Assembly (NCBI GenBank): GCA_947475005.1
Contig: CANJLI010000003.1
Span: 32,472 to 96,471 of the forward strand
DNA length: 64,000 nt
Source: Deltaproteobacteria bacterium
GTDB taxonomy: Bacteria; Bdellovibrionota_B; Oligoflexia; Oligoflexales; Bog-1112
Direction of reading: 5' to 3'
The notes under the pieces were generated by a model. It saw only the letters and a list, made by a program, of their open reading frames with translations, ran no database searches and was not told the DNA's origin. Position 1 is the stretch's first letter, and each line of letters begins with the position of its first letter. This document shows positions 1,148-46,952 of the stretch, one piece after another. Both the position numbers and the translations under genes were made by a program.

Positions 1148-1532
1148 GCAGAGCTTCATCCACTTCTTCGATGTTAACCGTTTGCACCAACACCGTTTTT
1201 TTCTTCCCCTTCAAAGCGGGTTCTGTTTTGATGACACGCACCAACATCTTAAGCGAGGAGGGGATATCGATTCGATTGTATTCCACAAACTCTCTTTTTC
1301 GTTTCCAATAATCAGGCAACTCGAGATGCACCTTCAGCAACATACCATCTGGATATTCCTGGGGAGACTGAAATTCGATGCCATGGGGGCTAACGTAAAG
1401 CGTATGCCCCTCTTGAGGAGGCTGTTTTTCGTGTTTCAATCGATAGGGATGTACCTGCATCGCAATTTTTTTGTTGGCCCGTGGGTAGGCGCGTACCAGT
1501 TCAGCATCGAATATTTTTTCTGACATATGCAT
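1116..1532 (-). CDS. PilZ-like domain protein (possible c-di-GMP receptor), co-oriented 4 nt downstream of fliA
   Basis: 138-aa ORF with an RxxxR motif (RAYPR) followed by a degenerate second PilZ motif (YVSPHG instead of D/N-x-S-x-x-G). Its position directly after fliA supports the call. Confidence 0.55.
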   Translation of the reverse strand: MHMSEKIFDAELVRAYPRANKKIAMQVHPYRLKHEKQPPQEGHTLYVSPHGIEFQSPQEYPDGMLLKVHLELPDYWKRKREFVEYNRIDIPSSLKMLVRVIKTEPALKGKKKTVLVQTVNIEEVDEALLKLFLEEKKL

Positions 1533-2537: not shown

Positions 2538-3758
2538 ATGTATCGATGGATATGGGTATTGTGCTGGTTCTCATACAGTGCGGTGGCGCAAGAGGAGGCA
2601 ACGCCTTCTTTTCAATACCAAACCGATCTAACCATGAGTTGGATCAACGGAATCCAAAAGGCTGATTTTCAAGAAAAAAACAGAACATTGGGGCTTACAA
2701 AAGCACAGATCGACCTTTCGTGGACCCGCTATCACCAGACCAGCTTGTTTCTCAGCTTGCGCCCCGATGCGTTGCTGACGGAACGAAAGACACAAGATGA
2801 GCGTGTGTTTGAATTCGAACGACGGGCAGGGCGTGTATATCAAAGAGCACCCCAGATCGAATTTTTAGATCTCTATCAGCTGCAGTTTGATTTTTCAGAT
2901 TCTCTGTCTGCAGGAGTTGGAATCTATCCAGATTTTTACTCTCGCATCGAAGCCTACGAAAGCCCCTTGACATTCAGCCTTTTAACCCTGTTTCCAATGA
3001 AAATTTCTGCACTCCAACTAAAGGGAACTAAACACAGGTTCCCCTTGGCACTCGGTACGGCACCTGCGGGAGAAGAAAAAAGTGTAGATTTTGCTTTGTA
3101 TGCATTCAACGGATCGAGAGATCGGGTAGAAAAATTTTCTTTTTCAGACCAAACCTTTGATTCTGCACCGGAGGTAAAGCAACCAAGAAAAGGCGTTGCA
3201 GGATCCGTGACGAGCTATCTGAATCCCCAATGGACGGTGTTTGGACTCGGGGGCACCTTTTCTAGCAAACAACGAGAAACTGTGAATAACAATATCATTC
3301 GCACCTCCTATTTTGCTGAAGCCTCACTTCAGTATCGGGGGCACCTCTATCTCCCGCTGCTGACTAGCATTGATCTTCGTTGGGCCCAAGACAAATGGCG
3401 TTCAGATGTTGCAGCCAGGCCGGCGGTAAATCAACAAAACATTTCGTGGAAATTGCAACTGGAGAAAGATCCCTCCACCTCCTTTTTACTGGGGGCCTAT
3501 TGGGGCAGAAGCGAGCGCCCTCAAAAAGAAACTTCTGAGTACAACAAAACTTTATATGAGGGACACCAATTGGAAGCAGGGGTTCGTAGACTGCTTCGAG
3601 GGTTTCTATTTGGTAACCTAATGGTTGCCTACGAAAAGAGAATGAAAAGAGACGAGGAGGGATGGAAGGATGGATTCGCCACCCAAGGCAACACCTACAC
3701 CCGTCCTTCTATCTACCGAATTGCAGTAGAATTGGAATGTATACTCGGCTCCTCCTGA
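2538..3758 (+). CDS. hypothetical secreted / outer-membrane protein
   Basis: 406-aa ORF with an N-terminal signal peptide (MYRWIWVLCWFSYSAVAQEE) and a beta-strand-like alternating pattern. No family was recognised. Confidence 0.55.
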   Translation: MYRWIWVLCWFSYSAVAQEEATPSFQYQTDLTMSWINGIQKADFQEKNRTLGLTKAQIDLSWTRYHQTSLFLSLRPDALLTERKTQDERVFEFERRAGRVYQRAPQIEFLDLYQLQFDFSDSLSAGVGIYPDFYSRIEAYESPLTFSLLTLFPMKISALQLKGTKHRFPLALGTAPAGEEKSVDFALYAFNGSRDRVEKFSFSDQTFDSAPEVKQPRKGVAGSVTSYLNPQWTVFGLGGTFSSKQRETVNNNIIRTSYFAEASLQYRGHLYLPLLTSIDLRWAQDKWRSDVAARPAVNQQNISWKLQLEKDPSTSFLLGAYWGRSERPQKETSEYNKTLYEGHQLEAGVRRLLRGFLFGNLMVAYEKRMKRDEEGWKDGFATQGNTYTRPSIYRIAVELECILGSS

Positions 3759-3791: not shown

Positions 3792-5036
3792 ATGTTTGAT
3801 GCACCGTTACCTACCCACACGCGCGTCCTAATTCTAGGAGGAGGAATTCATGGGGTTGGGGTGCTCCATGATTGGGTAAGTCGAGGATATCAAGATGCAC
3901 ACCTCATTGAGAAAAATACACTTGGTAGCGCGACCAGTTCAAAATCGACCAAGCTGATCCATGGGGGATTGCGCTACCTCGAACAACTGCGAGAGATGGG
4001 GATGGTCTTTGAGGCCTTGCGAGAGCGCTCTCTCCTCTTGCATGTGGCGCCAGATTTGGTGCACCCGGTAGAATTATTATTTCCCCTGCTACAAAAAGAA
4101 TGGACCTCGACTTGGAAAATTCAAATTGGACTCACTTTATATGACCGATTGGCGGGTCGAGCGGGTTTAGCCCCTCATAAAAAAATTCCATTGGACCAAG
4201 TTAAGAAGAGAATGCCTGGACTTCGAGTCGACAAATTTTCTTCTGTATTTTCTTTTTGGGATGGGCAAACAGACGATTTGGGCCTTGTGTATCGGGTTGC
4301 CGCTTCGAGTGTACAAAATGGGGGGAGCATTTCTCAACACCATCGCGTGGAAAGAATCACACCTTCCGCAAAAGGATGGTGTGTGCAGGTGCGCACACCT
4401 TCGGGAGCCTTGCAGGAGATTCAAGCTCAGTATGTGGTGAACTGTTTGGGCCCCTGGGCCAATACCTTGCTATTGGACAGCAACTTGCCGGTTCCGTATC
4501 AAGCTATCAATAACAAAGGTGCCCATTTGCTCTGTCGAGACATCGGCCTTACAGCAGGACTTTTCTTACCCTCTTTGCAAGGAGATGGACGCATCGTCTT
4601 TGCGCTACCATGGGAAGGCTACACCCTTGTAGGAACCACCGAATCCCTCTATGAAGACAACCTCGATGATGTACATATCGATGCCCAAGAGACCCAATAC
4701 TTGCTTTCTGTATGGAACGCCTACTTTCGCACGCCTTTTACAAAGACCGATCTCATAAGAACCTTCGCGGGCCTTCGCTGGCTGCCCTTGGATGCCAAGC
4801 ATTCCATATCCAAAACCTCTCGCGAGCATGTGGTGGGGGAGACTCGGATCGGGGATAGCTTGCTGCTGACCCTGTATGGAGGCAAACTGACAACCTATCG
4901 AAGCCTTTCGGAAAAGATTGGAAATCGATTGATGCAAGAGGCAGGGGAAAACAAACCCAGTCGGACCCAGGACCCCAAGGTTTGGGTGAGTAAAGAAAGG
5001 ACACCGCAGGTGCCACCTCCGGCAGATCGGTTTTAG
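3792..5036 (+). CDS. FAD-dependent glycerol-3-phosphate dehydrogenase/oxidase family protein (short form)
   Basis: 414-aa ORF with an N-terminal GxGxxG (LILGGGIHGVGV) and the GlpD-type motif STKLIHGGLRYLE. The TAG stop directly abuts the microsatellite at 5037. Confidence 0.8.
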   Translation: MFDAPLPTHTRVLILGGGIHGVGVLHDWVSRGYQDAHLIEKNTLGSATSSKSTKLIHGGLRYLEQLREMGMVFEALRERSLLLHVAPDLVHPVELLFPLLQKEWTSTWKIQIGLTLYDRLAGRAGLAPHKKIPLDQVKKRMPGLRVDKFSSVFSFWDGQTDDLGLVYRVAASSVQNGGSISQHHRVERITPSAKGWCVQVRTPSGALQEIQAQYVVNCLGPWANTLLLDSNLPVPYQAINNKGAHLLCRDIGLTAGLFLPSLQGDGRIVFALPWEGYTLVGTTESLYEDNLDDVHIDAQETQYLLSVWNAYFRTPFTKTDLIRTFAGLRWLPLDAKHSISKTSREHVVGETRIGDSLLLTLYGGKLTTYRSLSEKIGNRLMQEAGENKPSRTQDPKVWVSKERTPQVPPPADRF

Positions 5037-5127
5037 TTTTTCTTTTCTTTTCTTTTCTTTTCTTTTCTTTTCTTTTCTTTTCTTTTCTTTTCTTTTCTTT
5101 TCTTTTCTTTTCTTTTCTTTTCTTTTC
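5037..5127. repeat. pentanucleotide microsatellite (TTTTC), about 18 units
   Basis: Uninterrupted TTTTC tract read directly from the sequence. It starts 1 nt after the glpD-like stop codon and runs into the left terminal repeat of the palindromic element. Confidence 0.95.
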
Positions 5128-5689
5128 TGGAAACCAGCTGCGCAGTTTTCCAGACCTTCCTTGCCTCGCAATGGGAGAACGGAGATCCATTTCGAGAATG
5201 GCGAGTCAAGGCCGGCGCTCGCTCGGGGCCTCCCACCCTCTCTCAATCGCAGAGCTAATCCTCGTCAGGGAATCTAGAACGTCCGCTGCGCTTTCGACCC
5301 GGGCAGGTCCTACCGCATCTCCAGTTATTTTGTATGGATAAATATACATTTAACATCAATATGTTACGATTTTAATAAAGTTGTCAGAGCTAGTTTTAAA
5401 CCTAGAATATTTTCAGAGATACCTGAAAGGGTTGAGCCACTTGGGAAACAAGATCACCATACAAAATAACTGGAGATGCGGTAGGACCTACCCGGGTCAC
5501 AAATCGCAGTCTGGTTTTTAGTGTCCATGACGGGGGCTCTGTCTGCGATTTTGAGAGGGTGGGAGGCCCCGAGCGAGCGCCGGCCTTGGCATCTAAGATG
5601 GTAACGGACAGAAATCCCACCATCTCCCAGTGCGTAGCAAGGAAGGGTTTAAGGGAAAACTGCGCAGCTGGTTTCCCTTAGAAAAAAAA
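5128..5689. repeat. nested-palindrome element, copy A (MITE-like, no ORF)
   Basis: The terminal inverted repeat is GGAAACCAGCTGCGCAGTTTTCC (5129-5151) against GGAAAACTGCGCAGCTGGTTTCC (5654-5676). Inner arms CAAGGCCGGCGCTCGCTCGGGGCCTCCCACCCTCTC and GACCCGGGCAGGTCCTACCGCATCTCCAGTTATTTTGTATGG are both present as reverse complements on the right side. The centre is A+T-rich and about 110 bp. A homologous copy lies at 59841-60433. Confidence 0.85.
5381..5408 (+). promoter_or_regulatory. sigma-70-like promoter motif in the A+T-rich centre of element copy A
   Basis: TTGTCA-N16-TAGAAT, oriented toward the DsbA-family gene at 5758. It could arise by chance in A+T-rich DNA. Confidence 0.2.
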
Positions 5690-5757
5690 TTTGCGGGAAC
5701 AGCCAAAAATGGATACGCTATCGGATCGTTTACGATCCATAAAAAGGAGAGACCACC

Positions 5758-6771: not shown

Positions 6772-8001
6772 TTAGAGGGAACAGCCCCAACTTGACATGA
6801 ACGTGTTATCCGCTATGGTAAAAAAAGGAAAGACCTTACGCACGATCTTACACTGGGATTCATACAAAAAGCCCTGTTCGACTGCTAGCAAGTTGCCAAA
6901 CAGCTCGACAGATTGGGACAAAAAGTCAGATCCCGTTTCTTTCCACTCCGCTTGTCTTAGTTGATCCAAATAGAGAAAGAGGAACTGGAGCTGAGCCCTC
7001 GCATCGTATTTTCCAAGCCCTATGCGAAGCATTTGATAGAACCCATAAGCTAGAAAAGATCCCACCTCATGCACATCCAGAATACCTGCCTCTAATTTTC
7101 GAACGGTACTTTGGGTGATCTTTTTGGGATTTTCTGCATAAGAATCCAAAAGGTCTCTAGCTCGGGAAATACTAAAATGGGGCTGATACCCATGGAGATG
7201 TCCTCCCAAATCAGCGATGGCTTCATCTAACGCCGCAACAAACATGGGGTATGCGTGAGCTTTTTTTCCCCTCAACACCAAGTTATGGAAAAGATTGTGG
7301 GTAATCTCGTGTCCGATGGCCATCCAATTGTGGTAGTAGGGAATTTTACGAATCCCTTGCCGCTGCAAAAATAGGTGAGAATGAGGTAGAAAAAAAAGCT
7401 CACTGCGATCTCCCACGTGCATCGCATTATCTGCAAAGAAAGAGTTAGTGCTGCGTTTAACTAATAAGGGCTGGAGATAAATTTGAAGAGGCTGCCTGTG
7501 AGCTGATGCATGAATCTCTCGATTGAGGCGCATAGTTTCGTGGGTTTTATAGGCCAGCAATAGCCCGCTATTTTCGATGCTATCTAGGTTATACCCACCA
7601 TTTTCCCGGCAGATTGGAATGGGAGTTCCTTCTGAATACTGAAGTATAGTTGAAACTGGCGTGGAGGATCTCTCCCCCGTCGCTCCCACGTGCACCCCTT
7701 TTACCAAACTCGAGGTAATGCCTTTTCCAGAAAAATGCCGCATATCCAGTTGCACTTGAGACGGCTGTTCTCCTTGATAGACCCATATTTTCACGCAGTC
7801 GCCCAAACGAGAGGACGCACTATTTATCGAACAATTTTTATCTTGTCGTGGTAGGAGGTGGAGATCTCTGCGGGCAGCCGTTTCATCAATATCCGGCTTG
7901 GAATCATGTAACGGCGAATTGTCCTCGCTCCCCCCACAAGCAGAGAGCAGTGGAATGCACAAGAAGATCCGAAGTAAAAAATGGCTCCATTGTATCTGCA
8001 C
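6772..8001 (-). CDS. putative zinc-metalloprotease lipoprotein
   Basis: 409-aa ORF with lipobox LLSAC and an HExxH motif (IGHEITHNLFH). No closer family was recognised. Confidence 0.55.
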   Translation of the reverse strand: MQIQWSHFLLRIFLCIPLLSACGGSEDNSPLHDSKPDIDETAARRDLHLLPRQDKNCSINSASSRLGDCVKIWVYQGEQPSQVQLDMRHFSGKGITSSLVKGVHVGATGERSSTPVSTILQYSEGTPIPICRENGGYNLDSIENSGLLLAYKTHETMRLNREIHASAHRQPLQIYLQPLLVKRSTNSFFADNAMHVGDRSELFFLPHSHLFLQRQGIRKIPYYHNWMAIGHEITHNLFHNLVLRGKKAHAYPMFVAALDEAIADLGGHLHGYQPHFSISRARDLLDSYAENPKKITQSTVRKLEAGILDVHEVGSFLAYGFYQMLRIGLGKYDARAQLQFLFLYLDQLRQAEWKETGSDFLSQSVELFGNLLAVEQGFLYESQCKIVRKVFPFFTIADNTFMSSWGCSL

Positions 8002-12042: not shown

Positions 12043-12144
12043 CCCCATCCGTCATCCCAAGGCTGCGCAGCAGCCGTATGGGATCTCGATAAAAACACAG
12101 GGATCCCATACGGTCCCTTCGGGACCTTGGGATGACGGATGGGG
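12043..12144. repeat. cloverleaf-forming ~100-bp repeat (CGTCATCCCAAGG family), copy 1
   Basis: The outer stem is CCCCATCCGTCATCCCAAGG paired with CCTTGGGATGACGGATGGGG. It encloses hairpins GGCTGC-GCA-GCAGCC, GTATGGGATC...GATCCCATAC and GGTCCC-TTC-GGGACC. Confidence 0.85.
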
Positions 12145-17960: not shown

Positions 17961-17968
17961 TTGCAACG

Positions 17969-18058
17969 CCCAGTGGGGACACCCGATGCGAGTGTCCCCA
18001 CTGGGCTTGGAGTGCCCCCCCTTTTAAGGGGACACTCGCATCGGGTGTCCCCACTGGG
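17969..18058. repeat. REP-like hairpin pair between convergent genes (probable bidirectional terminator)
   Basis: CCCAGTGGGGACACCCGATGCGAGTGTCCCCACTGGG (17969-18005) and GGGGACACTCGCATCGGGTGTCCCCACTGGG (18028-18058) are reverse complements of each other. Confidence 0.8.
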
Positions 18059-18070
18059 CTCTGATAAACC

Positions 18071-23320: not shown

Positions 23321-23600
23321 AAGGGGACACCCGCGAATGATGTGAGATCGGGTGAGATCGGGGACAGTTACCGAATTATTTGAGATCGGGGACAGTTACC
23401 GAATTATTGGAGCGGGGGGCATCCCCCGCTCCAATAATTCGGTAACTGTCCCCGATCTCACCGATCTCACGATCTCATATGGGATCTCGACAAAAACGCA
23501 GAGATCCCATACGGCCCCTCCGGGACCTTGGGATGACGGAGGGGGGCTCCCCCTCCAATAATTCGGTAGGTGGACCCGATCTCCGATCTCACAGGATGAC
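23321..23600. repeat. composite repeat cluster (REP fragment, direct repeats, long perfect hairpin, truncated cloverleaf repeat)
   Basis: GAGATCGGGGACAGTTACCGAATTATT occurs twice. A hairpin at 23382-23459 has ~37-bp arms. A truncated CGTCATCCCAAGG-family copy lies at 23476-23543, and CCAATAATTCGGTA recurs at ~23555. Confidence 0.8.
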
Positions 23601-23605
23601 GGAAC

Positions 23606-24037
23606 TTACAGCGCAGTACTTTGGGCCCAATCTTGCTCTTCTTGTATGGTGGCAGGCCGAAATGCTTTTGCTGGGAAAAAAGACAAGCTGCCAACCTTTC
23701 TCCCCCTATCCATAATAGGACGAATTCCTTCTTGCTCTCTTTCGTGTATCCTCCAAGGTGTGAAAGGTTTGGCTTCCGATGCAGCAATCATGGTGCCTAC
23801 TTCTTTTTCCCAACGCTCTTGATCTGCAGCGCAAACCTCTCCCCGATCCACTATACGATCCACTATAAATCGCACCTTATAATGGCCGATTTTCATCTTT
23901 GTTGTCTGATCATAAATGGTCACTGTCCTATGTTCTTTCAACTCCGTCAATTCCTTCTGAGTCAAGGAAAAAGCAAATGCGGAAGAAAGCGTTATTGCCA
24001 ACGCAATAGAAGACATCAGCAAACCGGTTCGTTTCAT
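23606..24037 (-). CDS. hypothetical secreted protein (paralog of 24203..25009 N-terminal part)
   Basis: 143-aa ORF. The signal peptide MKRTGLLMSSIALAITLSSAFA is nearly identical to that of the neighbouring gene. Confidence 0.5.
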   Translation of the reverse strand: MKRTGLLMSSIALAITLSSAFAFSLTQKELTELKEHRTVTIYDQTTKMKIGHYKVRFIVDRIVDRGEVCAADQERWEKEVGTMIAASEAKPFTPWRIHEREQEGIRPIMDRGRKVGSLSFFPAKAFRPATIQEEQDWAQSTAL

Positions 24038-24202
24038 GCTACCCTCATTTTAATTTATGCAATGGATCTATGAATAAACGGTAGCGAAAAGAATGGAGAT
24101 ATGGGAAATGGTTTTTTGTGGGAGGAAAAGATTTTATACAGAGATATGAGGCTAAAGGTATGCAGCCATACGGATGCATAGCTGCAAGGCTCCTGCAGAG
24201 GA

Positions 24203-25009
24203 CTACTCAGTTATTTCGAGCTTTTCAAGCGTAGCTTCAGCGCGCACAAGATCTGCGTCGTGGGCCGCTTCGTCATGTGCAGAACCTTCGTCATGAGAAG
24301 AAGCTGCATGTGAGGACGCTGGCATATGTTCAGGCACAAAAGTAACAAACATGTCCCCATGTCCAGTGGGTTCATGGCTATTTGCTGTTGCAGCCCATGC
24401 AGCCCCATTCCATGTGAATCTTGCAACTGGCCATAATGTACCCGCTGCAATGGCTTCCGTTGCCGCAGCAATAGGTCGGTACAAAATCGTGCCTGTCGGG
24501 GCAACAACTGTATAGATTACGCCAACTGTCCCTTCTCCAATGGTTCTAAATACATCTCCTATTACCTTCCCGCTGAATTTAATGGCATTAAATGCCACGC
24601 GAGCTAGATGGCCAAATTGTCCTTTGGCTTTTCGATCCAATTCGATCATTTCTTTAAATTGGGTTGGAATCGCACCAACTCCATTGGTTACCCCGTCTTT
24701 CATGACGGAAATTCCGTCTTTAAAACGTCGGTACACCTTGTCTTTCCAGAAATCTTCTCTAATCAATTCGTCCATTAACTTTCCAGCAGCGATCCAATGA
24801 TTGCCGCCGTCTTTCACAATGTTTTCTTGACCAGGCATAAAACTGATTTCATAGTGACCCGTTTTTTGTCCCGTTGCTTTATCATAAACGGTAACGGTCC
24901 CATGTCTTCGAAGTTCTTGAGACTGCTCATGAGTCAAGGAAAAAGCAGAGACAGAAGAAATCGTTGCAGCCAATGCAATAGAAGACATCAACAAACCAGT
25001 TCGTTTCAT
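24203..25009 (-). CDS. hypothetical secreted protein with His/Asp-rich C-terminal tail
   Basis: 268-aa ORF with signal peptide MKRTGLLMSSIALAATISSVSA and a C-terminal HAASSHDEGSAHDEAAHD stretch. Confidence 0.55.
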   Translation of the reverse strand: MKRTGLLMSSIALAATISSVSAFSLTHEQSQELRRHGTVTVYDKATGQKTGHYEISFMPGQENIVKDGGNHWIAAGKLMDELIREDFWKDKVYRRFKDGISVMKDGVTNGVGAIPTQFKEMIELDRKAKGQFGHLARVAFNAIKFSGKVIGDVFRTIGEGTVGVIYTVVAPTGTILYRPIAAATEAIAAGTLWPVARFTWNGAAWAATANSHEPTGHGDMFVTFVPEHMPASSHAASSHDEGSAHDEAAHDADLVRAEATLEKLEITE

Positions 25010-25117
25010 ACTACCCTCATTTTTTTGTAAAAAATCAATGGGCAGACGGTAACGAAAAGAATGAAAATACGGGAAACGGTTTTTTAGTGGGTCAAAATAT
25101 TTTGTACAGAGATATGA

Positions 25118-26680
25118 TTATAAAGGTATGTTGCCATGCTTACGAATAGGAGGCGTTACTGTTTTATCTGCACACACATGCAGTCCTTCAATCAAATACC
25201 TGCGGGTTTCTTCTGGAAAAATCACAGCATCTAGAAATCCTTTTGCAGCAGCGATATAGGGATTTTCAAATTTAACCGCGTAGGCAGCGGTCATTTCTTT
25301 TTCTTTTTCTTTCGGATCTTCAGCAGATTGGATCTCACTACGAAAGATAATTTTGGCAGCTCCCTGTGCGCCCATTACCGCAATCTCTGCACTGGGCCAT
25401 GCCAGGTTGAGATCAGCTCCGATGTGTTTGGAGTTCATCACATCATAGGCGCCTCCATAAGCTTTTCTCGTAATTACGGTAAAGCGAGGGACCGTACTTT
25501 CGCAAAACGCATAGAGTAATTTCGCTCCATGTCGAATGATGCCCCCTCGCTCTTGATCACTGCCTGGCAAAAATCCTGGTACATCTACAAACGTAACCAA
25601 AGGGATTTGAAAGGCATCACAGAATCGCACAAAACGAGCACCTTTTACAGAAGCTTCAACATCTAATACTCCTGCCAGTTGCTCTGGATTGTTGGCAATG
25701 ATACCGACGGTTTTTCCCTCGAGGCGTGCCCATCCCACGATCAAGTTGCCCGCGATCTCAGGTTTCATTTCCCAAAAAGATTCAGGATCAAAAACCGCTT
25801 CGATGACCTTATGCATGGAGTAAGGAGAGGTGCGGTTGTCTGGCATAATCCCGTTAAGAATGCGCTGACGCTCCACTACAACGGTTTCATCCAATGGCAC
25901 AAAAACTGTAGGTTCAGGGGATACATACTCACACCACTTGCGAGCTGCTTGCAGAGCTGATATCTCATCGGGAAAACGCAAATCCACCACCCCACTCTCT
26001 TGAGTATGGGTCATGGAGCCTCCAAGGTCTTCGAAGGAAATTACTTCCCCCGTTACTGTTTGGATGACATCTGGTCCTGTAATAAACATATGACTGGTGT
26101 GATCCACCATAAAGATAAAATCCGTGAGCGCAGGAGAGTATACAGCTCCCCCTGCGCAAGGTCCCATCACAAGAGAGAGCTGAGGGATCACTCCACTGGC
26201 TTGTACATTGAGATAGAACAAATCGGCATAGCCACCGAGACTCACCACTCCTTCATGGATACGAGCCCCTCCAGAATCACTAAGACCGATAATGGGACAT
26301 CGATTTTGGATAGCCATCTTGTAGGTTTTACAAATCTTCTTGGCATGGGCTGCGGAGAGGCTTCCCCCGAGCACAGTAAAATCTTGAGCAAACAAGTAGA
26401 CCCGACGCCCCTCAATCTGCCCCCACCCCGTAATAACCCCATCCCCTAGAAAGCGACGATTCTCCATGCCAAAATCTTGGCAATCGTGTTCCACAAAGGC
26501 ATCGATTTCAAAGAACGTACCCGCATCGCACAGCAAGTGAATACGTTCTCTTGCTGTTAGCTTTCCTTGCTTGTGCTGATGGGCAATGCGAGAAAGCCCC
26601 CCAGCTTCCTGCAGTTTTTCTCGCTTCTGCTGCAACAGATCAAAATCAGCGGTAACCCCCATGGACGACTCCTTTTGCAA
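25118..26680 (-). CDS. acyl-CoA carboxylase carboxyltransferase (beta) subunit, propionyl-CoA carboxylase type
   Basis: 520 aa with two crotonase-like carboxyltransferase halves. PccB/methylmalonyl-CoA carboxyltransferase-like sequence throughout. Confidence 0.9.
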   Translation of the reverse strand: MQKESSMGVTADFDLLQQKREKLQEAGGLSRIAHQHKQGKLTARERIHLLCDAGTFFEIDAFVEHDCQDFGMENRRFLGDGVITGWGQIEGRRVYLFAQDFTVLGGSLSAAHAKKICKTYKMAIQNRCPIIGLSDSGGARIHEGVVSLGGYADLFYLNVQASGVIPQLSLVMGPCAGGAVYSPALTDFIFMVDHTSHMFITGPDVIQTVTGEVISFEDLGGSMTHTQESGVVDLRFPDEISALQAARKWCEYVSPEPTVFVPLDETVVVERQRILNGIMPDNRTSPYSMHKVIEAVFDPESFWEMKPEIAGNLIVGWARLEGKTVGIIANNPEQLAGVLDVEASVKGARFVRFCDAFQIPLVTFVDVPGFLPGSDQERGGIIRHGAKLLYAFCESTVPRFTVITRKAYGGAYDVMNSKHIGADLNLAWPSAEIAVMGAQGAAKIIFRSEIQSAEDPKEKEKEMTAAYAVKFENPYIAAAKGFLDAVIFPEETRRYLIEGLHVCADKTVTPPIRKHGNIPL

Positions 26681-30107: not shown

Positions 30108-30746
30108 ATGAGAAGATGGTTCGCGATTGCGTTATTGTGTCTTCCTACATTTGTTTTTGCGTTTACGCCCCCCTTCGGAACAGCAACAAAAGAAGAAAGA
30201 GGGGGCAAGAGTATAGGGCACACTCAGCTTACTTATCAAGGCAAGGGCTATTGGAAAAATCCTGCGGGAGAGAAGAGGCACTACTCGGTAACAACAGACG
30301 TATTTCCTTTGTCAGGGCTTGATGGGATTTATGTACTCAATACCTATACAGACGCCCTTACCAAGGACACGTGGTATTTGTTTTTCACGATCTTGAACGA
30401 ATCAAACGGATTTGCAAGCGTATGGATGGACGGTGTTCCTGAAGGCGTTGGCTATTGCTTTCCACTCTCTGGACCTGCAACCAATCCAAATAAGAAATGC
30501 CACATGAGCATTCTATCACCGGAAGGCCACCTGGAACAAACCGTAGTGGTCAATGGCAATAACCTGCTGGTATTTGGCTCTCAGCAAAACATGCAAGGTA
30601 TCGTGGCTTGGAAACAAGGGCTTTCAGATGTGAACCCTCCTATGCCTCAGGTCCCGCAGCTTCCTCCTCCTATGCCTCAGGTCCCGCAGCTTCCTCCTAT
30701 GCCTCAGGTCCCGCAGCTTCCTCCCTTTCCGGAGCTTTCTCCCTAA
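30108..30746 (+). CDS. hypothetical secreted protein with C-terminal Pro-rich tandem repeats
   Basis: 212-aa ORF with signal peptide MRRWFAIALLCLPTFVFA. The C-terminus carries three PPMPQVPQLPP repeats. Confidence 0.55.
   Translation: MRRWFAIALLCLPTFVFAFTPPFGTATKEERGGKSIGHTQLTYQGKGYWKNPAGEKRHYSVTTDVFPLSGLDGIYVLNTYTDALTKDTWYLFFTILNESNGFASVWMDGVPEGVGYCFPLSGPATNPNKKCHMSILSPEGHLEQTVVVNGNNLLVFGSQQNMQGIVAWKQGLSDVNPPMPQVPQLPPPMPQVPQLPPMPQVPQLPPFPELSP
30636..30724 (+). repeat. tandem repeat, 3 units of 27-30 bp (CCTATGCCTCAGGTCCCGCAGCTTCCT)
   Basis: Read directly from the sequence. The repeat is in-frame within the 30108..30746 CDS. Confidence 0.9.
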
Positions 30747-30836
30747 CTAATCTACCCTCTACTATTTCTTTCAGCCGTTGATGATATATTCCAAGGAGCC
30801 TTGAATTCTCTGCTTGAAGCAGTTAATTTTCAGTCC

Positions 30837-31502
30837 TTAGCGCTCTTCGCAATCAGTTTCCTCCACCACAGGGCTATCTGCCACAGGACCCTCTATCTCT
30901 CTCGTTCTGTCTATAAACTGATGAAGCTCGCGATCGTGGGCTACCAGATTCGAATTATACTCTCGAAGCGCGGCGCAACGTTGTTCAAGCCCTTGAATGG
31001 AAAATTGAAGATCAGAGTTTTCCTCTGCAAGTTCTTTTATTTTTCCCTTCAGCTCTTCAGGCTGGGCTTGATCTTCTTCTTCACCAGATGACTGCAGTCG
31101 TAACTGAACTTCCTTCACAGGTATAATTGCGTGATCTGCAACAACCTTTTCTACTTGCGTATCTTTTATACAAATTCTTCTCAGACTTTGTAAATTGCCT
31201 TCTAACTGAAGCTCTACAGGCCCAGGAATTTCTTGCAATGAAACTGAGTTCAATAGAGGGAGATCTGCCACAACAATCTTAACAGGCTCCTCAGTAGACT
31301 GCTCCTCATCAGGCACCCCACCTTTCACAACAAGTGTTGTAATCTCAGGCTCTCCTCTGATTATATGCTCTGAATCGGTAACCTCAACCACTTTCAAGTT
31401 CTCTGCTGCTCCTGGCAAATCCTCAGCTGCGATCCCCATAAAACCAGGCATACCGGACAACAATCCACCTACGATATAAAAAGGCCATATGCTTCTTCTC
31501 AT
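30837..31502 (-). CDS. membrane-anchored coiled-coil protein, paralog 1 of 3
   Basis: 221 aa with N-terminal anchor MRRSIWPFYIVGGLLSGMPGFMGIAA, an LRR-like central segment (LQEIPGPVELQLEGNLQSLRRICI) and a heptad-rich C-terminus. Confidence 0.55.
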   Translation of the reverse strand: MRRSIWPFYIVGGLLSGMPGFMGIAAEDLPGAAENLKVVEVTDSEHIIRGEPEITTLVVKGGVPDEEQSTEEPVKIVVADLPLLNSVSLQEIPGPVELQLEGNLQSLRRICIKDTQVEKVVADHAIIPVKEVQLRLQSSGEEEDQAQPEELKGKIKELAEENSDLQFSIQGLEQRCAALREYNSNLVAHDRELHQFIDRTREIEGPVADSPVVEETDCEER

Positions 31503-31620
31503 AGGAATACTCCCTAAATAAGAATTTTTTAATGAAGCAAGGATCCGTGCTTATGTCTGGGTATACGCCTCCAAAAAAAGGAGTTCAACTGCAAATTAAG
31601 AAGGGGCGGCGTCCATATAA

Positions 31621-31763
31621 TTTCCGTCATCCCATAAGGCTGCGTAGCAGCCGTATGGGATCTCGATAAAAACGAAGGGGATCCCATACGGTCCCTTCGG
31701 GACCTTGGGATGACGGAAATAGCTCAATTGGGGACACCCGCACCGGGTGTCCCCAATTGAGCT
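31621..31763. repeat. cloverleaf repeat (31621-31719) fused to REP-like hairpin (31721-31763)
   Basis: TTTCCGTCATCCCATAAGG pairs with CCTTGGGATGACGGAAA around three internal hairpins. This is followed by AGCTCAATTGGGGACACCCGCACCGGGTGTCCCCAATTGAGCT. Confidence 0.85.
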
Positions 31764-31862
31764 ATTTCCTAATGCAAAATTGAGAAATAATAGAGCCGAA
31801 GAATGCATCGGGTGTGATTTTTCCAATGATGGATTCAAGGTGAGAGAAGGCTTGTATTTGGC
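31762..31862 (-). pseudogene. duplicated fragment of the mnmE 3' end
   Basis: 31762-31862 aligns by eye at high identity with 33550-33650, which holds the mnmE stop codon and its last ~30 codons. The copy is not attached to any mnmE body. Confidence 0.7.
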
Positions 31863-31887
31863 CCTCAGAAAGCCATACAAGGGATCC

Positions 31888-31941
31888 TAGCCTGGAAACA
31901 AGGACTTTAAGATGTGAACCCTCCTATATCTCAGGTTCCTG
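31888..31941 (+). pseudogene. duplicated fragment of the 3' region of the 30108..30746 gene
   Basis: TAGCCTGGAAACAAGGACTTTAAGATGTGAACCCTCCTATATCTCAGGTTCCTG matches 30604-30656 (TGGCTTGGAAACAAGGGCTTTCAGATGTGAACCCTCCTATGCCTCAGGTCCCG). Confidence 0.65.
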
Positions 31942-32673
31942 TTATTTTCCCAGATCTGGATCCGCTTCCGTAGGTAACTCAGACCGTTGAATCTCTTTGA
32001 TGTGTACCCATAGAGTTGCATTGTATCTCATCAGATCTTTATTGCGACAGGTGAGAAATCCAATCTGCTCTCGAAGTTTCTCATTCTCTGCTTGCAGTCT
32101 CTCGTTATTCTCTCTCAGATTGTGGGTAAGAGATTCATAACTATCAGTATCAGATGGACTTGTAGCAGGAAGCAACTCCACTGCTTCAATCGGAATAATG
32201 GCATTCTCTAGCTCGACTTTTTCCAATTCAGCACCTCTCAAATGGATTCGTCTGAGCCCAGATAAATTTCCTTTTAATTGAAGATTTATGGGCGCTGGAG
32301 TTTGGAGCACAACTTCTTTTAATTTCGGCGAGTCTTCCACAAGCACATTCACCGGTCCCTCAACAGGAGGCACCCCTTGTATAATCAATTTTTCAGTCTC
32401 AAAATCTTTTTTAATCTCAATCTTTGCTGATTTTGCTTTTACTTCCGCTGTTGCCGCATTTATGATTTTAATTTGGGAAGGGCTTCTATGGCATTGGGTA
32501 GGGTTGAGGACAAGTGCAATATCCTCCTCCTCTTCCCCCTCTGACGCAGGCCCATCGACCTCAGGCGGGCATTGCTCCGAGGATAATGCATCTGCGGCAA
32601 CTCCTATAAAACCAGGCACGCCGGACAACAAACCACCCACGACATAAAAAGGCCACCAGCTTTTTTTTCTCAT
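31942..32673 (-). CDS. membrane-anchored coiled-coil protein, paralog 2 of 3
   Basis: 243 aa with anchor MRKKSWWPFYVVGGLLSGVPGFIGVAA, LRR-like segment LQTPAPINLQLKGNLSGLRRIHL and a C-terminal coiled coil. Confidence 0.55.
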   Translation of the reverse strand: MRKKSWWPFYVVGGLLSGVPGFIGVAADALSSEQCPPEVDGPASEGEEEEDIALVLNPTQCHRSPSQIKIINAATAEVKAKSAKIEIKKDFETEKLIIQGVPPVEGPVNVLVEDSPKLKEVVLQTPAPINLQLKGNLSGLRRIHLRGAELEKVELENAIIPIEAVELLPATSPSDTDSYESLTHNLRENNERLQAENEKLREQIGFLTCRNKDLMRYNATLWVHIKEIQRSELPTEADPDLGK

Positions 32674-32709
32674 AAGAAAGTTCCTTCTATTCTTTCATTT
32701 CCAGACCCG

Positions 32710-33381
32710 TTACCGCCTGTCTAGTTCAGACAATTCATTCATTAGGGTTAGGTTATATTGCCGAACAGCTTTGTTAATCAGATCAAGTTCTTGAATCTGC
32801 ATTGAAAATTTAAAATTTTCATTTTGTATAATTTGGAGATTCTTTCGAAGCTCTCCAATGATCGATCGAAGCTCTGAACTAGAGGCCGTGTCTTCATCAG
32901 GGGAGGGTTTACTAAGAGGGAATAGAGAAATCATACTTACAGAAAGGCTCTCAGTCTCCACCTCCACATTCTGTAATTTAATGCCTTTTCCTACTTGAAT
33001 TTGACGAAGATTTAATAAATCACCCTCTAACCTGAGACGAATGGGCCTTGGAATATTTTCAATCTTGATTGATTTCAAAGCTGGCATTTCTGCCAAGACG
33101 ACCTTTATGGGATTATGAAGAGGGACTGGACCTGTAAGCACAAGTTCACTAATATCAGGCTTTTCCTTAACAGCGAATTCCACTGCATCTGGGTTTATTT
33201 GAAAGTGAAGTGTGGATTTTGTCGGACCAGCTGAATCAGGGGTGTCTTCATCATCAGAAGACTTTTCTCCAAGGAGCCGTCGATTAAGGGAACGCTCCGA
33301 TGCCAAAACGCCCATAAAGGCAGGATAACTACTCAAAAAACCACTTAACAGATAAATAGGAACCATGCTTCTTCTTCTCAT
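32710..33381 (-). CDS. membrane-anchored coiled-coil protein, paralog 3 of 3
   Basis: 223 aa with anchor MRRRSMVPIYLLSGFLSSYPAFMGVLA, LRR-like segment IENIPRPIRLRLEGDLLNLRQIQV and a C-terminal coiled coil. Confidence 0.55.
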   Translation of the reverse strand: MRRRSMVPIYLLSGFLSSYPAFMGVLASERSLNRRLLGEKSSDDEDTPDSAGPTKSTLHFQINPDAVEFAVKEKPDISELVLTGPVPLHNPIKVVLAEMPALKSIKIENIPRPIRLRLEGDLLNLRQIQVGKGIKLQNVEVETESLSVSMISLFPLSKPSPDEDTASSSELRSIIGELRKNLQIIQNENFKFSMQIQELDLINKAVRQYNLTLMNELSELDRR

Positions 33382-33549
33382 AGGAATACTCCTGAAATAA
33401 GAAATTTTTTATGAAGCAAGGATCCGTGCTCATGTATGGGTATACGCCTCTGAAAAGGAGAGAGCAAGGGGGGAAATTGGCAGGGAGCTAAAGCAGACTA
33501 TAACGTTTGGAGATCCTTCGCTTGCGCTCAGGATGACGGAGTTACTATC

Positions 33550-34920
33550 CTATTTCCCAATGCAAAATTGAGAAAAGATGGAGTCTAGGATTTCATCGGG
33601 TGTGATTTTTCCAATGATGGATTCGAGGTGAGAGACAGCTTGTTGGATTTCAAATGCTAAACAATCCTCTCCTTCTTCTTGCCAAGTTTGTAAGTAGTGT
33701 TCGAGGTTTTTTGCAGCCTGAGAAATCGCATGCAAGTGCCTTCGGTTACTCAAAAAGCAGTCTCGCCCTCGGCTTTGGGTTACATGGAAATCTACAAACT
33801 CGATCAGTTTGGCTTTCAAAGCATCCAGCCCCTCGCCGCTTCGACAAGACAAGCGTAAGCCTTCGGATTCTTTTGCATGTACGGCACGCACATCGATTTG
33901 GGTGAGAATCAACACATGGTGCTTCGGTTGTAATTTTTCCACCCACTGAGCAAGCTGCAGTTCTACATCCACTGTATCAGCCGGAAAGAGAAACAACACT
34001 ACGTCCGCCTGTTGGGCCTGAGCCACAGAACGCTCAATCCCCATGCTCTCTACCGTCTCTGCAGTAGCACGAATGCCAGCAGTATCGATGAGTCGAATTA
34101 CACGACCGTTAAGGAGCAAAGATTCTTCCAGAAAATCCCTGGTGGTACCCGGCTCTGGACTGATGATGGCTCGCTCGTACTGGAGCAACGTATTGAGCAA
34201 CGTAGATTTTCCCGCATTGGGAGGACCTACGATGGCAACCTGAAGTCCATTTCTGGTAATGGACCCACTCTGGTAACTATCCACCAAGGTTGCCATCTGT
34301 GCTTGTACCTGCAAAACCTCAGGCAGAATTTGCTTCAACTGCAAGCGAGAAGTTTCTTCTTCTTCGGGAAAATCAATCATGGCATTCAAGAGAGACAGTG
34401 TATGTAGCAGTGACTTACGCAACCCAAGCACAGTGCGTTGTAAGGCGCCCGAGGTTAACTGCTGAGCTGCCATCCACTGTTGCTCGGATACGGAATGAAT
34501 GAGGGCATCGATACCCTCTGCCGTTGCCAGATCCATCTTGCCATTTAAGAAAGCCCTACGGGTAAACTCTCCCCCTTCAGCTTGTCGGAAACCAGCTTGG
34601 AGCAAGACATCCATACAGGTACGAATTAGATAAGGACTGCCGTGGAGGTAAATCTCTGCACTGTCCTGTCCCGTATAAGAATGGGGTGCATAGAAGAAAA
34701 CAGCCATAGGCGCATCCAACACACACCCGGTGTGGTCAAGAAACTCGCATAACTGCAACGAACGAGGGGGCCATGTTGGGTCCATGCGCGTGCGCAGATG
34801 GGTTTTGAGAACATCATGACACCCCTCGCCTGAGACGCGAAGGATGGAGATGGCTGCAGCCTCTCTGCCACTTGCAAGGGCTATGATGGGTGCTTGATCA
34901 GGAAGTAGAGGCGTCGTCAT
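33550..34920 (-). CDS. mnmE: tRNA modification GTPase MnmE
   Basis: 456 aa with G1 motif GPPNAGKSTLLN, DTAGIR, and the hallmark C-terminal FCIGK. Confidence 0.95.
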   Translation of the reverse strand: MTTPLLPDQAPIIALASGREAAAISILRVSGEGCHDVLKTHLRTRMDPTWPPRSLQLCEFLDHTGCVLDAPMAVFFYAPHSYTGQDSAEIYLHGSPYLIRTCMDVLLQAGFRQAEGGEFTRRAFLNGKMDLATAEGIDALIHSVSEQQWMAAQQLTSGALQRTVLGLRKSLLHTLSLLNAMIDFPEEEETSRLQLKQILPEVLQVQAQMATLVDSYQSGSITRNGLQVAIVGPPNAGKSTLLNTLLQYERAIISPEPGTTRDFLEESLLLNGRVIRLIDTAGIRATAETVESMGIERSVAQAQQADVVLFLFPADTVDVELQLAQWVEKLQPKHHVLILTQIDVRAVHAKESEGLRLSCRSGEGLDALKAKLIEFVDFHVTQSRGRDCFLSNRRHLHAISQAAKNLEHYLQTWQEEGEDCLAFEIQQAVSHLESIIGKITPDEILDSIFSQFCIGK

Positions 34921-38132: not shown

Positions 38133-38246
38133 CGTCTTGTCTCTATTTTGCGAAAATTACAGGAAAATAAAATGGAAAGCCCTTAAGCTGGCGGAGATCC
38201 TAACAGAAAACCATAGGTCAAGCAATAGAAACTGCCTGGATTTAGA

Positions 38247-38380
38247 GGGGACACCCCGATAGAGTGTCCCAAAATTTCGTCATCCCAAGGTCCCAAAGGG
38301 ACCGTATGGGATCCCTAGGCAGCTACTAGGCACTTCCAAAGAGATCCCATACGGCTGCTGCGCAGCCTTGGGATGACGGA
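38247..38380. repeat. REP-like hairpin (38247-38270) plus cloverleaf repeat (38278-38380)
   Basis: GGGGACACCCCGATAGAGTGTCCC is followed by CGTCATCCCAAGG...CCTTGGGATGACGG, which carries a variant central loop (CCTAGGCAGCTACTAGG). Confidence 0.85.
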
Positions 38381-38394
38381 GTTGCGAGACCTTC

Positions 38395-39141
38395 TTACCC
38401 TCTAACAGCTAAGACCCCTTCTGGGGTAATAAAAAGCCCAAAGGGCAATCCAGCTTTGATTAAACGCTCTGGCTCTACTACTTTCCACTTCTGCTCCACA
38501 TACGCATCCAGCACGATCTGGTGCAGTCTGGTGTTTTCAGCAGAATGGTCCGTGAGGAATTTCTCCAAAATCTTTGTGATTTCAAGAGAATAAGGCTGAT
38601 GTGTCAACGCCTCTGCTGCCGCATATCGAATGCGCTCATCGTGAGCTTGTAGAAAAGGCAGCATTTTTTCATGGGGGTTTTGCAAGGGATAATCACGCAA
38701 ATGACAGAGGATATCGTAATTTTTGTCTGTTTGATCAGGATCTAAGGAGACATCTGTATAATCCAGGCATCCCTCCAAAATCTCTACCATCTCTGTCGGA
38801 GTGGCCAATCTCTCAATGATTTTAAGGGGCCACGCAATCAGACTGGTCGTATACACATGGTCGCGCACAATCGGAAGGGCCGCCGCGCCATAGGCCAAAA
38901 TCCCCTCGAAAGCACTCTCCTTCTCTCGGGCATCATAAATGCCATGATCCAAGCTAAAAGCGAAGCGCTTGAGCAAAGCGGGAATCGCAATGGCAGGGTC
39001 CTTGTGGGCACAGAAAAACTCGATGGCTGCCACACGATCCTCTCGGATGGCCTTGGCATTCTGCAGATTTTTTTGGTTTTTTTCCACAGCACTCTGTTGC
39101 CGCTGCGCTCGAAAAGCTTTTATTTTTTGGAATAGCCCCAC
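38395..39141 (-). CDS. hypothetical HEAT-repeat-like protein
   Basis: 248-aa helical-repeat ORF (e.g. DERIRYAAAEALTHQ). No specific family was recognised. Confidence 0.5.
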   Translation of the reverse strand: MGLFQKIKAFRAQRQQSAVEKNQKNLQNAKAIREDRVAAIEFFCAHKDPAIAIPALLKRFAFSLDHGIYDAREKESAFEGILAYGAAALPIVRDHVYTTSLIAWPLKIIERLATPTEMVEILEGCLDYTDVSLDPDQTDKNYDILCHLRDYPLQNPHEKMLPFLQAHDERIRYAAAEALTHQPYSLEITKILEKFLTDHSAENTRLHQIVLDAYVEQKWKVVEPERLIKAGLPFGLFITPEGVLAVRG

Positions 39142-46696: not shown

Positions 46697-46945
46697 TGGG
46701 GACACCCTCGAATGGCGCTTCCTTAAGCGTACGATTTGCCTAACTCTTTGGAAATCCGTCATCCCAAGGTCCCGAAGGGACCGTATGGGATCCCTGCGTT
46801 TTTATCGAGATCCCATACGGCTGCTGCGCAGCCTTGGGATGACGGATGGGTTGCCATCTTGAATGTAAGCAAAAGATGACAATTCCTTCCTTAAGGAAGC
46901 GGCATTAAGGAAGCGGCATTCGGGGCACCCGATGCGAGTGTCCCC
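46697..46945. repeat. nested composite: REP-like arms bracketing a cloverleaf repeat (46755-46856)
   Basis: GGGGACACCCTCGAATGGCGCTTCCTTA (46697-) is approximately the reverse complement of TAAGGAAGCGGCATTCGGGGCACCCGATGCGAGTGTCCCC (-46945). TAAGGAAGCGGCAT is directly duplicated. The central copy is ATCCGTCATCCCAAGG...CCTTGGGATGACGGAT. Confidence 0.8.
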
Positions 46946-46952
46946 TTTTTCA

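Follow-up and report, generated by a model that had tools for sequence, protein, structure and literature searches.

Small palindromic repeats are common in bacteria, and how they spread and what role they play is debated. The families with which we compare our element are the repetitive extragenic palindromic sequences (REPs), the REP doublets forming hairpins (REPINs), the bacterial interspersed mosaic elements (BIMEs), and the miniature inverted-repeat transposable elements (MITEs), as defined in PMC3184786, PMC3116915, and PMC3733652. A REP unit is an imperfect palindrome of 20-40 bp with an unpaired GTAG or CGTC tag (PMC3733652), and MITEs such as the Correia elements may carry promoters or binding sites that affect neighboring genes (PMC3184786). 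Here, we describe an imperfect, non-coding palindrome of ~550 bp, referred to as copy A, at positions 5129-5676 of a 64,000-nt stretch of contig CANJLI010000003.1 (GenBank assembly GCA_947475005.1; the window), together with a second copy in the same window, copy B, and related copies on metagenome contigs (designated by L numbers). The copies are built from a common unit, are dispersed among gene neighborhoods, are constrained in the pairing of their stems, are non-coding and match no known RNA family, vary between strains, and coincide with synteny breaks. We lean toward the view that copy A is a variant within a family of composite palindromic repeats that is specific to its lineage and of the selfish REPIN/BIME/MITE kind, mobilized in trans and prone to recombination.

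A preliminary description, made from the sequence alone, read three tiers of inverted repeat in copy A, and all three were recovered: a 23-nt terminal repeat (GGAAACCAGCTGCGCAGTTTTCC; 5129-5151 on the forward strand and 5654-5676 on the reverse strand) without mismatches, a 36-nt GC block (5207-5242 and 5553-5588), likewise without mismatches, and a 42-nt third tier (5296-5337 and 5457-5498) with one mismatch. In 100 shuffled sequences, all three patterns were absent throughout. The GC block is also present twice in copy B (59955-59990 and 60268-60303), and all four occurrences are identical. The 548 nt of copy A are predicted to fold into one hairpin of -338 kcal/mol, compared with -169 ± 7 kcal/mol for shuffled sequences (z = -24.6). 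Between the conserved blocks, the arms of copy A are 78% complementary to each other, yet they are 81-87% identical to copy B, in agreement with the mosaic arms proposed earlier. The tiers do not, however, hold up as independent features, as they arise from two inverted units of ~270 bp, here termed H. These paired units, which are truncated in copy A, had been missed in the preliminary description, as had the self-contained hairpins at the element ends and the (TTTTC)18 tract at the left boundary.

The H unit has a fixed module order, T1-h2-a-b-c-d-a'-T2, with four distinct hairpins. Reading inward, a T-rich microsatellite of the (TTTTC)n type is followed by the T1 hairpin, which has an invariant 13-nt core (CCAGCTGCGCAGT) and a stem of 5-9 bp, and then by h2, CCTTGC-NNN-GCAAGG. 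Next is an imperfect hairpin of ~190 nt; its parts are the outer stem (a), a second stem in which the GC block (b) pairs with block d, and an apical stem (AATCGCAG...CTGCGATT) with a loop that contains (C/A)GTCATGGA; the returning strand of a then leads into T2, the near-palindrome GTAGCTGCAAAGATCTGGTAGCAGC. As a whole, T1 is an imperfect palindrome of 23-31 bp without a GTAG or CGTC tag; GTAG is found in T2, and CGTCA is found in the loop of hairpin c.

We built a profile of the H unit (model length 281) from 14 units. It identified two opposed full-length units in each of copy B (E = 4e-80 and 5e-91), L014, L017, L019, L105, and L109, and one unit each in L106, L022, and L018. In copy A, it identified two units that are both truncated at model position 193 of 281, one at 5129-5314 (model positions 2-193; E = 7e-45) and one at 5676-5480 on the reverse strand (model positions 2-193; E = 6e-53); there were no further matches in the window. 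Standard elements therefore consist of an a1-type and an a2-type unit arranged head to head with T2 in common, and the nested inverted repeats exist because the two opposed units share this one T2. Elements are 510-550 bp in size, and their longest open reading frame (ORF), of 99 amino acids (aa), is related only to ORFs called on other copies, which fits the protein-free repeat family proposed earlier. Fold prediction of the separate arms, also suggested earlier, showed that each half of an element folds independently, at -92 to -125 kcal/mol. Copy B has 132-nt arms that are 98% complementary, in addition to its outer arms, and it folds (59879-60387) at -432 kcal/mol (z = -34.7). Copy A can form the long hairpin only, without the two unit hairpins.

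Stem sequences differ widely among copies while remaining complementary. At least eight versions of the T1 stem were identified (TAAGGGAAA, TCTGGAAA, TTTGGGAAA, TCTGGGAAA, TGTGGAA, TTGGAA, TTGGGCA, and others), and every one of them is complemented across the core. Within an alignment of 11 distinct T1 copies, six of the nine stem pairs vary on both sides, and 89% of cells pair; the resulting covariation score of 0.52 was reached by 0 of 500 shuffles, and slid controls scored ≤0.22. The 23-nt ends of copy A are identical in inverted orientation, as are the ends of copy B and other copies; L017 and L105 carry different T1 stems at the two ends of one element, and the constraint is thus local to each hairpin. 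For the a stem, there are three unrelated versions (~28, 35, and 31 nt), every one of which comes with a complement, and the two strands matched in 11 of 15 scorable units. The four units with mismatched a stems, either fully (L105_H1 and L022_H1) or partly (L008_H1 and L002_H2), look like recombinants. Blocks b and d were read from the sequences as two co-travelling allele pairs, b1/d1 and b2/d2.

The search for further copies that the preliminary description proposed found them in at least seven gene neighborhoods among related metagenome contigs (DAO/DsbA, M78/311-aa, PD-(D/E)XK/319-aa, ManC, SBP_bac_5/sulfatase, Asd/rhodanese, and TrmO), all of them intergenic. We retrieved these copies by using spurious element ORFs as protein queries and by examining contigs with the flanking genes of copies A and B. 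As a query, the 99-aa ORF of copy B identified six ORFs from other copies; of the further element ORFs used, one gave one extra contig and another gave only its own match. The copy in L104 is clearly more divergent: its left T1 is partly deleted, it has no microsatellite, an ORF runs into it, and three tandem 17-nt repeats (CTCCAAAGTCCCAGTAG) occupy the T2 position (985-1040).

Proteins encoded in the window were recovered residue for residue on ENA and Logan metagenome contigs. One source run is cited by a paper on Swedish lakes, and the host is an uncultured freshwater bacterium. Based on the GlpD-like protein encoded next to copy A, the nearest genomes are a metagenome-assembled genome (MAG) labelled Pseudobacteriovorax (50% identity) and a “Deltaproteobacteria” MAG (44%). 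Neither shares gene order with the window or carries the element, so they are uninformative about empty sites, and relatives this distant and non-syntenic indicate that the host is an isolated lineage, probably close to Bdellovibrionota/Oligoflexia. Comparison of the GlpD-like protein with 1.8 billion cluster representatives gave best relatives of only 45-54% identity, and many sizeable ORFs in the window, including those at 2538-3758, 6772-8001, and 60434-61369 (406, 409, and 311 aa), lack a Pfam domain; the host lineage is therefore poorly sampled.

An exact-pattern scan for the conserved GC block gave no match in GTDB contigs (one genome per species) or in IMG/VR viral contigs, and a scan of JGI metagenomes gave two, both chance matches in unrelated high-G+C genes. 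Copy A matched no plasmid record and copy B matched no phage record, and we rejected a plasmid or phage origin on that basis. A literature search with conserved strings also gave no match. As no Rfam family was matched either (see below), the element remains without a name, as the preliminary description had it. That description also reported no transposase, reverse transcriptase, or integrase nearby, and Pfam analysis of the ORFs within ~10 kb of either copy bears this out, identifying none of these and no recombinase or Y1/HUH domain. In addition to ordinary metabolic and housekeeping domains, the ORFs near both copies include an HTH_25/Peptidase_M78 pair and one small protein of the GIY-YIG type; the HTH_25 gene and the Peptidase_M78 (ImmA/IrrE-like) gene that follows it (57654-59840) lie immediately upstream of copy B, and in a different strain the element links these two genes to an Opp transporter operon in place of the 311-aa gene.

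The outer ends of the elements show a recurrent relationship to stop codons. At 5 of 12 characterized outer ends, the T-rich tract lies 0-1 nt past a stop codon, and at a sixth end it lies 3 nt past one. Four of these six stop codons are TAG, compared with 20-25% TAG among genes in the window (P about 0.04). The (TTTTC)18 tract of copy A begins 1 nt past the TAG stop codon (5034-5036) of a gene for an FAD-oxidoreductase, the GlpD-like protein. This protein can be aligned to its homologues through its last residues, so the gene was not truncated by the element. At the right end of copy A, G A8 (5682-5690) is present in place of a microsatellite. The two tracts of copy B are mirror images of each other, which makes the tracts part of the palindrome, and each touches the TAG stop codon of one of two convergent genes; mirror-image tracts also flank the copies in L017, L019, and L109. 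At both ends, the purine-rich strand of the microsatellite points outward in the 5' to 3' direction. Unit lengths are 4, 5, and 6-7 nt, and the tracts differ from strain to strain; in L005, for example, the (TTTTC) tract is 35 bp (7 units) shorter. The string TTAG, which occurs at several ends, was considered as a target-site duplication and rejected, as it is either an extension of the T1 stem or the stop codon of the neighboring gene.

Comparison of the copy B locus between assemblies revealed several alternative junctions. The window has the M78 gene, copy B, and the gene for a 311-aa protein, in that order. In sample ERZ27277814, a 25-kb contig (L109) has the M78 gene, a complete element, and then Opp transporter genes, and a different contig (L105) has the 311-aa gene, a complete element, and a different flank. 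Within the L105 element, the unit proximal to the 311-aa gene is identical to that of the window, the center has the same sequence in the opposite orientation with respect to the 311-aa flank, and the far unit is different. In sample ERZ27280162, L106 has the 311-aa gene, a single unit, unrelated DNA, and a 574-aa gene. The single units in L106, L022, and L018 end at one common point just past T2. Furthermore, on a contig of 576 bp, the DsbA-side end of copy A continues into sequence from within the L014 copy, and a fragment of an older T1 end adjoins the right end of L014. Taken together, these data show that segments are exchanged among the copies and that the copies lie where synteny is broken between strains. 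The most secure of the junctions is that in L109, which has kilobases of genes on both sides.

In the model that we lean toward, an enzyme encoded elsewhere would spread the family by recognizing either the T1 hairpin, with its fixed core and free stem, or T1 together with T2. Complementarity would be upheld at the DNA level: hairpins or cruciforms would form and then undergo repair and gene conversion, both inside a copy and from one copy to another, and this recombination would turn the elements into hubs of chromosomal rearrangement. The intergenic, mostly post-3'-end position of the copies, as described for REPs (PMC3733652), counts in favor of a selfish repeat. Several observations weigh against this model. 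No transposase, REP-associated tyrosine transposase (RAYT), parent insertion sequence (IS), or autonomous copy was found in the window and ~30 short contigs, and the empty sites that the preliminary description had suggested looking for alongside copies were not recovered there from any strain. The flanks of A, B, L014, L017, L019, and L109 contain no direct target-site duplication, and the T-rich and A-rich tracts on either side are inverted rather than direct; on this point, the comparison with MITEs fails. The alternative junctions were all seen in metagenomes assembled from short reads, where some of them may be chimeras across conserved blocks. The covariation of the hairpins and their placement right after stop codons also fit a role at the RNA level. 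Finally, the model leaves the microsatellites and the placement at stop codons (0-1 nt at 5 of 12 ends and ≤3 nt at 6 of 12) unaccounted for; this placement may reflect a target preference for the first bases past a stop codon or an RNA-level role of the spacer.

The family most resembles REPs and REPINs in being extragenic and non-coding, in consisting of imperfect palindromes arranged as inverted doublets that fold into a larger hairpin, in lying mainly downstream of genes and between convergent genes, and in sharing its genome with other repeat families. It differs in size and complexity, as a REP has 20-40 bp and a REPIN has ~100 bp, whereas H has ~270 bp with four hairpins and the doublet has ~510 bp; moreover, T1 lacks the GTAG/CGTC tag, and the element ends carry inverted penta- or hexanucleotide microsatellites. 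Like the BIMEs of enterobacteria (PMC3184786), the elements are mosaics of a few palindromic motifs and linkers in alternating orientation, are associated with recombination, and lie in 3' untranslated or intergenic DNA. Unlike BIMEs, which are variable strings of REPs, H has its modules in one fixed order, and its alternative module alleles stay complementary to their partners; a sequence relationship has not been established. Similar to MITEs such as the Correia elements of Neisseria (PMC3184786), the elements are <600 bp long, have terminal inverted repeats, lack a transposase gene, and are intergenic. However, they match no known IS by their ends and have no direct target-site duplication, their inverted repeat is nested and spans the whole element, and their ends are self-folding hairpins with covarying stems.

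Two other kinds of mobile DNA share part of this architecture. The palindrome-associated transposable elements (PATEs), non-autonomous derivatives of the IS200/IS605 group, are moved as single strands by Y1 HUH transposases; they have imperfect hairpins rather than simple inverted repeats as ends, have a short specific sequence next to one end, and cause no target duplication. The family resembles them in its hairpin ends (T1 and T2), in the absence of a duplication, in the TTTTC that abuts T1, and in the existence of single units with unlike ends. In contrast to PATEs, double elements have two identical inverted outer ends, the abutting pentanucleotide is amplified to a microsatellite, and no TnpA-type (Y1) domain is encoded within ~10 kb of either copy. 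Long modular inverted arms and simple-repeat boundaries are also typical of foldback transposons and microsatellite-associated MITEs in eukaryotes, which promote rearrangements. The elements have arms and boundaries of this kind, with arms that form almost the whole element, and would likewise promote rearrangements; however, they belong to another domain of life, and their arms are unique hairpin modules rather than tandem subrepeats. Overall, the described REP, REPIN, BIME, and MITE families are far smaller and less ordered than this one; by analogy, it appears to work as these do, without a claim of membership in any one of them. Its unusual traits are the four hairpins per unit, the stems that are replaced wholesale and yet stay complementary, and the mirror-image microsatellites at the boundaries. 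If the family is mobile, T1 offers a clear cis-acting hairpin for finding the enzyme; if it is not, the elements are a natural case of long palindromes that are tolerated and reshaped in a bacterial chromosome.

A different explanation, which we consider unlikely albeit deserving of attention, is that the H unit is a functional structured RNA, either a 3' untranslated module with a role in the stability, termination, or insulation of the upstream mRNA or a non-coding RNA in its own right; opposed pairing would then ensure that one sense unit is made whichever strand is transcribed. In keeping with this, the stems covary while the loops and the internal-loop blocks keep their sequence, and at 6 of 12 ends the element lies 0-3 nt past the stop codon of an inward-reading gene, so it is very probably co-transcribed. 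Similarly placed REPs are thought to act as RNA elements (PMC3733652). If the units were selected as RNA of one strand, G.U-compatible mismatches should exceed A.C mismatches on that strand; however, the unit hairpins have 46 of each on the sense strand, and arm-to-arm counts are likewise unbiased. We therefore rejected a strand-specific RNA signal. At gathering score, Rfam gave 0 matches in the window. In permissive Rfam scans, the only matches were to plant miRNA-precursor models (20-42 bits, compared with thresholds of 85-230) and to the THF-II riboswitch (22.5 bits, compared with a threshold of 41). Plant miRNA-precursor models recognize any long hairpin. With sub-threshold matches only, membership in an RNA family was rejected, as was an intrinsic terminator at the element ends, since neither end has a hairpin followed by a T-run. 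The polarity of the a1 and a2 types relative to neighboring transcription is variable, with A and L017 unlike L014. Copy A is kept in three assemblies even though the inner strands of its two unit hairpins are missing, whole modules are exchanged, and synteny breaks coincide with the ends of units. The balance of mismatches, the Rfam negatives, the absence of terminators, and the variable polarity favor constraint at the DNA level, although co-transcribed RNA may have effects as well.

The elements might instead be sites of chromosomal architecture adopted by the host, in which a cruciform and homopurine/homopyrimidine tracts are bound by nucleoid proteins, gyrase, or repair enzymes; this proposal, modelled on those made for the BIMEs of Escherichia coli, strikes us as improbable. 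Homopurine/homopyrimidine tracts that flank palindromes, as they do here, are classic formers of non-B DNA. Blocks b, c, and d and the T1 core show no differences between copies, unlike the variable segments next to them. BIMEs bind integration host factor (IHF), gyrase, and DNA polymerase I (PMC3184786), and triplex-forming repeats have been tied to rearrangement (PMC4666352). However, the elements are not known to have a protein partner, and the presence, single or double form, and content of the element vary at one locus between close strains, which fits turnover better than a constant structural role.

There is also a slim chance that the H unit is the cis-acting part of an undescribed kind of bacterial mobile DNA, with a hairpin or linear intermediate and precise integration behind stop codons, that drives rearrangement between strains. 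The head-to-head pairs joined at T2 would then be products of replication or resolution, and the (GAAAA)n tracts, which run 5' to 3' toward both ends, would have the geometry of telomeric repeats, as if they had been added to 3' ends.

Copy A is distinguished from the rest of the family by its center. The preliminary description was right that copy A has an A+T-rich center that is absent from copy B; this center (5338-5456; 119 bp, 30% G+C) sits between the third-tier arms. It is not a feature of the family and belongs to a locus-specific cassette of 173 bp with inverted ends of 27 nt (TACCGCATCTCCAGTTATTTTGTATGG at 5311-5337 and 5457-5483). Both copy A units stop inside block d, after GGTCCTACC. 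The window, L001, and L006 carry this cassette without sequence differences and in one orientation, and it is otherwise absent from the sequences examined; L005 has no more than the first 24 nt in common with it. In sample ERZ27280162, the copy A locus has a standard, copy-B-like center; up to 5310, L008 matches the window at 100% identity, and from 5480 onward, L002 matches it at >99.9%. In L005 (sample MEHR18-2), the left arm runs into different DNA with an HtrA-type gene. The locus thus has three center alleles among strains. Restricted as it is to one locus and variable between strains, the A+T-rich core is a replacement. An independently mobile core was considered and rejected, as no second copy was present in the sequences examined.

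As the preliminary description reported, this core carries the promoter-like motif TTGTCA-N16-TAGAAT, pointing at the DsbA-family gene. The earlier proposal that the element could supply a promoter relies on this single consensus match in DNA of 30% G+C, and the number of promoter-like sites in the region (2, compared with 0.8 ± 1.0 in shuffled sequences) is not above chance. Copy A could be read as an invertible promoter switch for the DsbA-family gene, in which the core between the 42-nt inverted repeats flips, as the near-perfect inverted repeats surround a 119-bp segment with a promoter-like motif toward the downstream gene, and the copy B center has opposite orientations with respect to one of its flanks when samples are compared. 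We find such a switch very unlikely, because the motif-bearing core has a single orientation in all three assemblies that cover it (window, L001, and L006), there is no recombinase within ~10 kb, this arrangement is found in one copy of the family only, and other strains have a promoterless standard center at the locus. Any effect on the DsbA-family gene, whether through the promoter-like motif or a structured 5' leader, would probably be a by-product of the element.

That the palindromes are artefacts of assembly, such as fold-back chimeras, is hardly credible: many short-read contigs do terminate within the element or switch partner there, but L014, L019, and L109 run through whole elements into genes on both sides, and the architecture, with locus-specific flanks, was recovered by different assemblers from >10 samples in several studies. 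For annotation, the family explains assembly breaks and spurious ORF calls at these sites in this lineage. The coordinates of the features of both copies, and of the other repeats in the window, are listed in Table 1.

Table 1. Positions of the repeat features (in the window unless a contig is named)
Feature	Position	Strand	Description
(TTTTC)18 microsatellite	5038..5128	+	Outer boundary of copy A; 18.2 copies, 100% (Tandem Repeats Finder)
T1 terminal hairpin, copy A left end	5126..5154	+	Stem TCTGGAAA / TTTCCAGA, fixed core CCAGCTGCGCAGT
h2 small hairpin	5159..5173	+	CCTTGC-CTC-GCAATG (other copies CCTTGC-NNN-GCAAGG); seen in unit folds
Left H unit of copy A, truncated	5174..5314	+	a1-type strand 5174-5206; GC block b1 5207-5242; c hairpin AATCGCAG...CTGCG, loop CGTCAGGGA, 5243-5295; start of block d 5296-5314
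Locus-specific cassette, 173 bp	5311..5483	.	Replaces inner stems and T2
Sigma-70-like motif TTGTCA-16-TAGAAT	5381..5408	+	Toward DsbA-family gene, start 5758; 10/12 matches
Right H unit of copy A, truncated	5480..5650	-	d' 5484-5498; c' 5499-5552; b1' 5553-5588; a2-type strand; h2'
T1 terminal hairpin, copy A right end	5651..5681	-	Stem TAAGGGAAA / TTTCCCTTA
(TTTTTC)6 tract, copy B left	59842..59876	+	Directly behind TAG stop codon (59838-59840) of Peptidase_M78 gene
Copy B, complete head-to-head H pair	59878..60387	.	T1 59878-59902, a1 unit, T2, inverted a2 unit, T1' 60363-60387
Shared palindrome T2 of copy B	60113-60137		GCTGCTACCAGATCTTTGCAGCTAC
(GAAAA)9 tract, copy B right	60390..60433	+	Abuts stop codon (CTA, 60434-60436) of convergent 311-aa gene
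Stop-adjacent outer ends	5034-5038, 59838-59842, 60433-60436; L017 5002-5005; L019 4036-4039; L109 ~4474-4480		
CGTC-type repeat	12044-12140, 23478-23545, 31636-31722, 38273-38395, 46752-46850; L018 3820-4030		
Third repeat family	133-219, 17963-18060, 31722-31762, 38244-38270, 46909-46953, 52170-52249, 63347-63387; L005 ~3430-3490; L106 ~1473-1500		
Palindromic octamer	5138, 5660, 12063, 38358, 46824, 59888, 60370, 8632, 19077		CTGCGCAG

The window contains two further families of small REP-like repeats. The second family resembles CGTC-tagged REPs, with the structure TCCGTCATCCCAAGG-[TCCCGAAGGGA or CTGCGCAGCAG]-CCGTATGGGATC, in which the inner stem has two alternative self-complementary versions. 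Its copies often form inverted pairs of ~97 nt, and two copies are 99% complementary. In L018, three tandem copies of this repeat are located between T-rich microsatellites, just upstream of an H unit. The third family is a small hairpin, GGGGACAC-N9-GTGTCCCC, that occurs singly or paired; several copies are followed by T-runs, and members of this family may be terminators. The palindromic octamer CTGCGCAG occurs nine times in the window, compared with an expected 1.1 ± 1.0. Seven of the nine occurrences lie within hairpins, four in T1 and three in the CGTC-type repeat, and the octamer may be a recognition motif shared by these two repeat families.

The regions at 30566-33643 and 23958-25149 are paralogous blocks in which direct repeats of 75-128 nt with 74-87% identity are spaced 1-1.9 kb apart, a pattern that indicates tandemly duplicated small genes. 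There is also an in-frame tandem repeat of 27/30 nt at 30636-30724 and a 28-nt tandem repeat at 23353-23419. Lastly, a 794-aa ORF on the reverse strand (52246-54630) has a weak Pfam match to VRP3, the family of Salmonella SpvC-type virulence proteins, at residues 417-528 (E = 7e-6; 26.1 bits, compared with a cut-off of 25).

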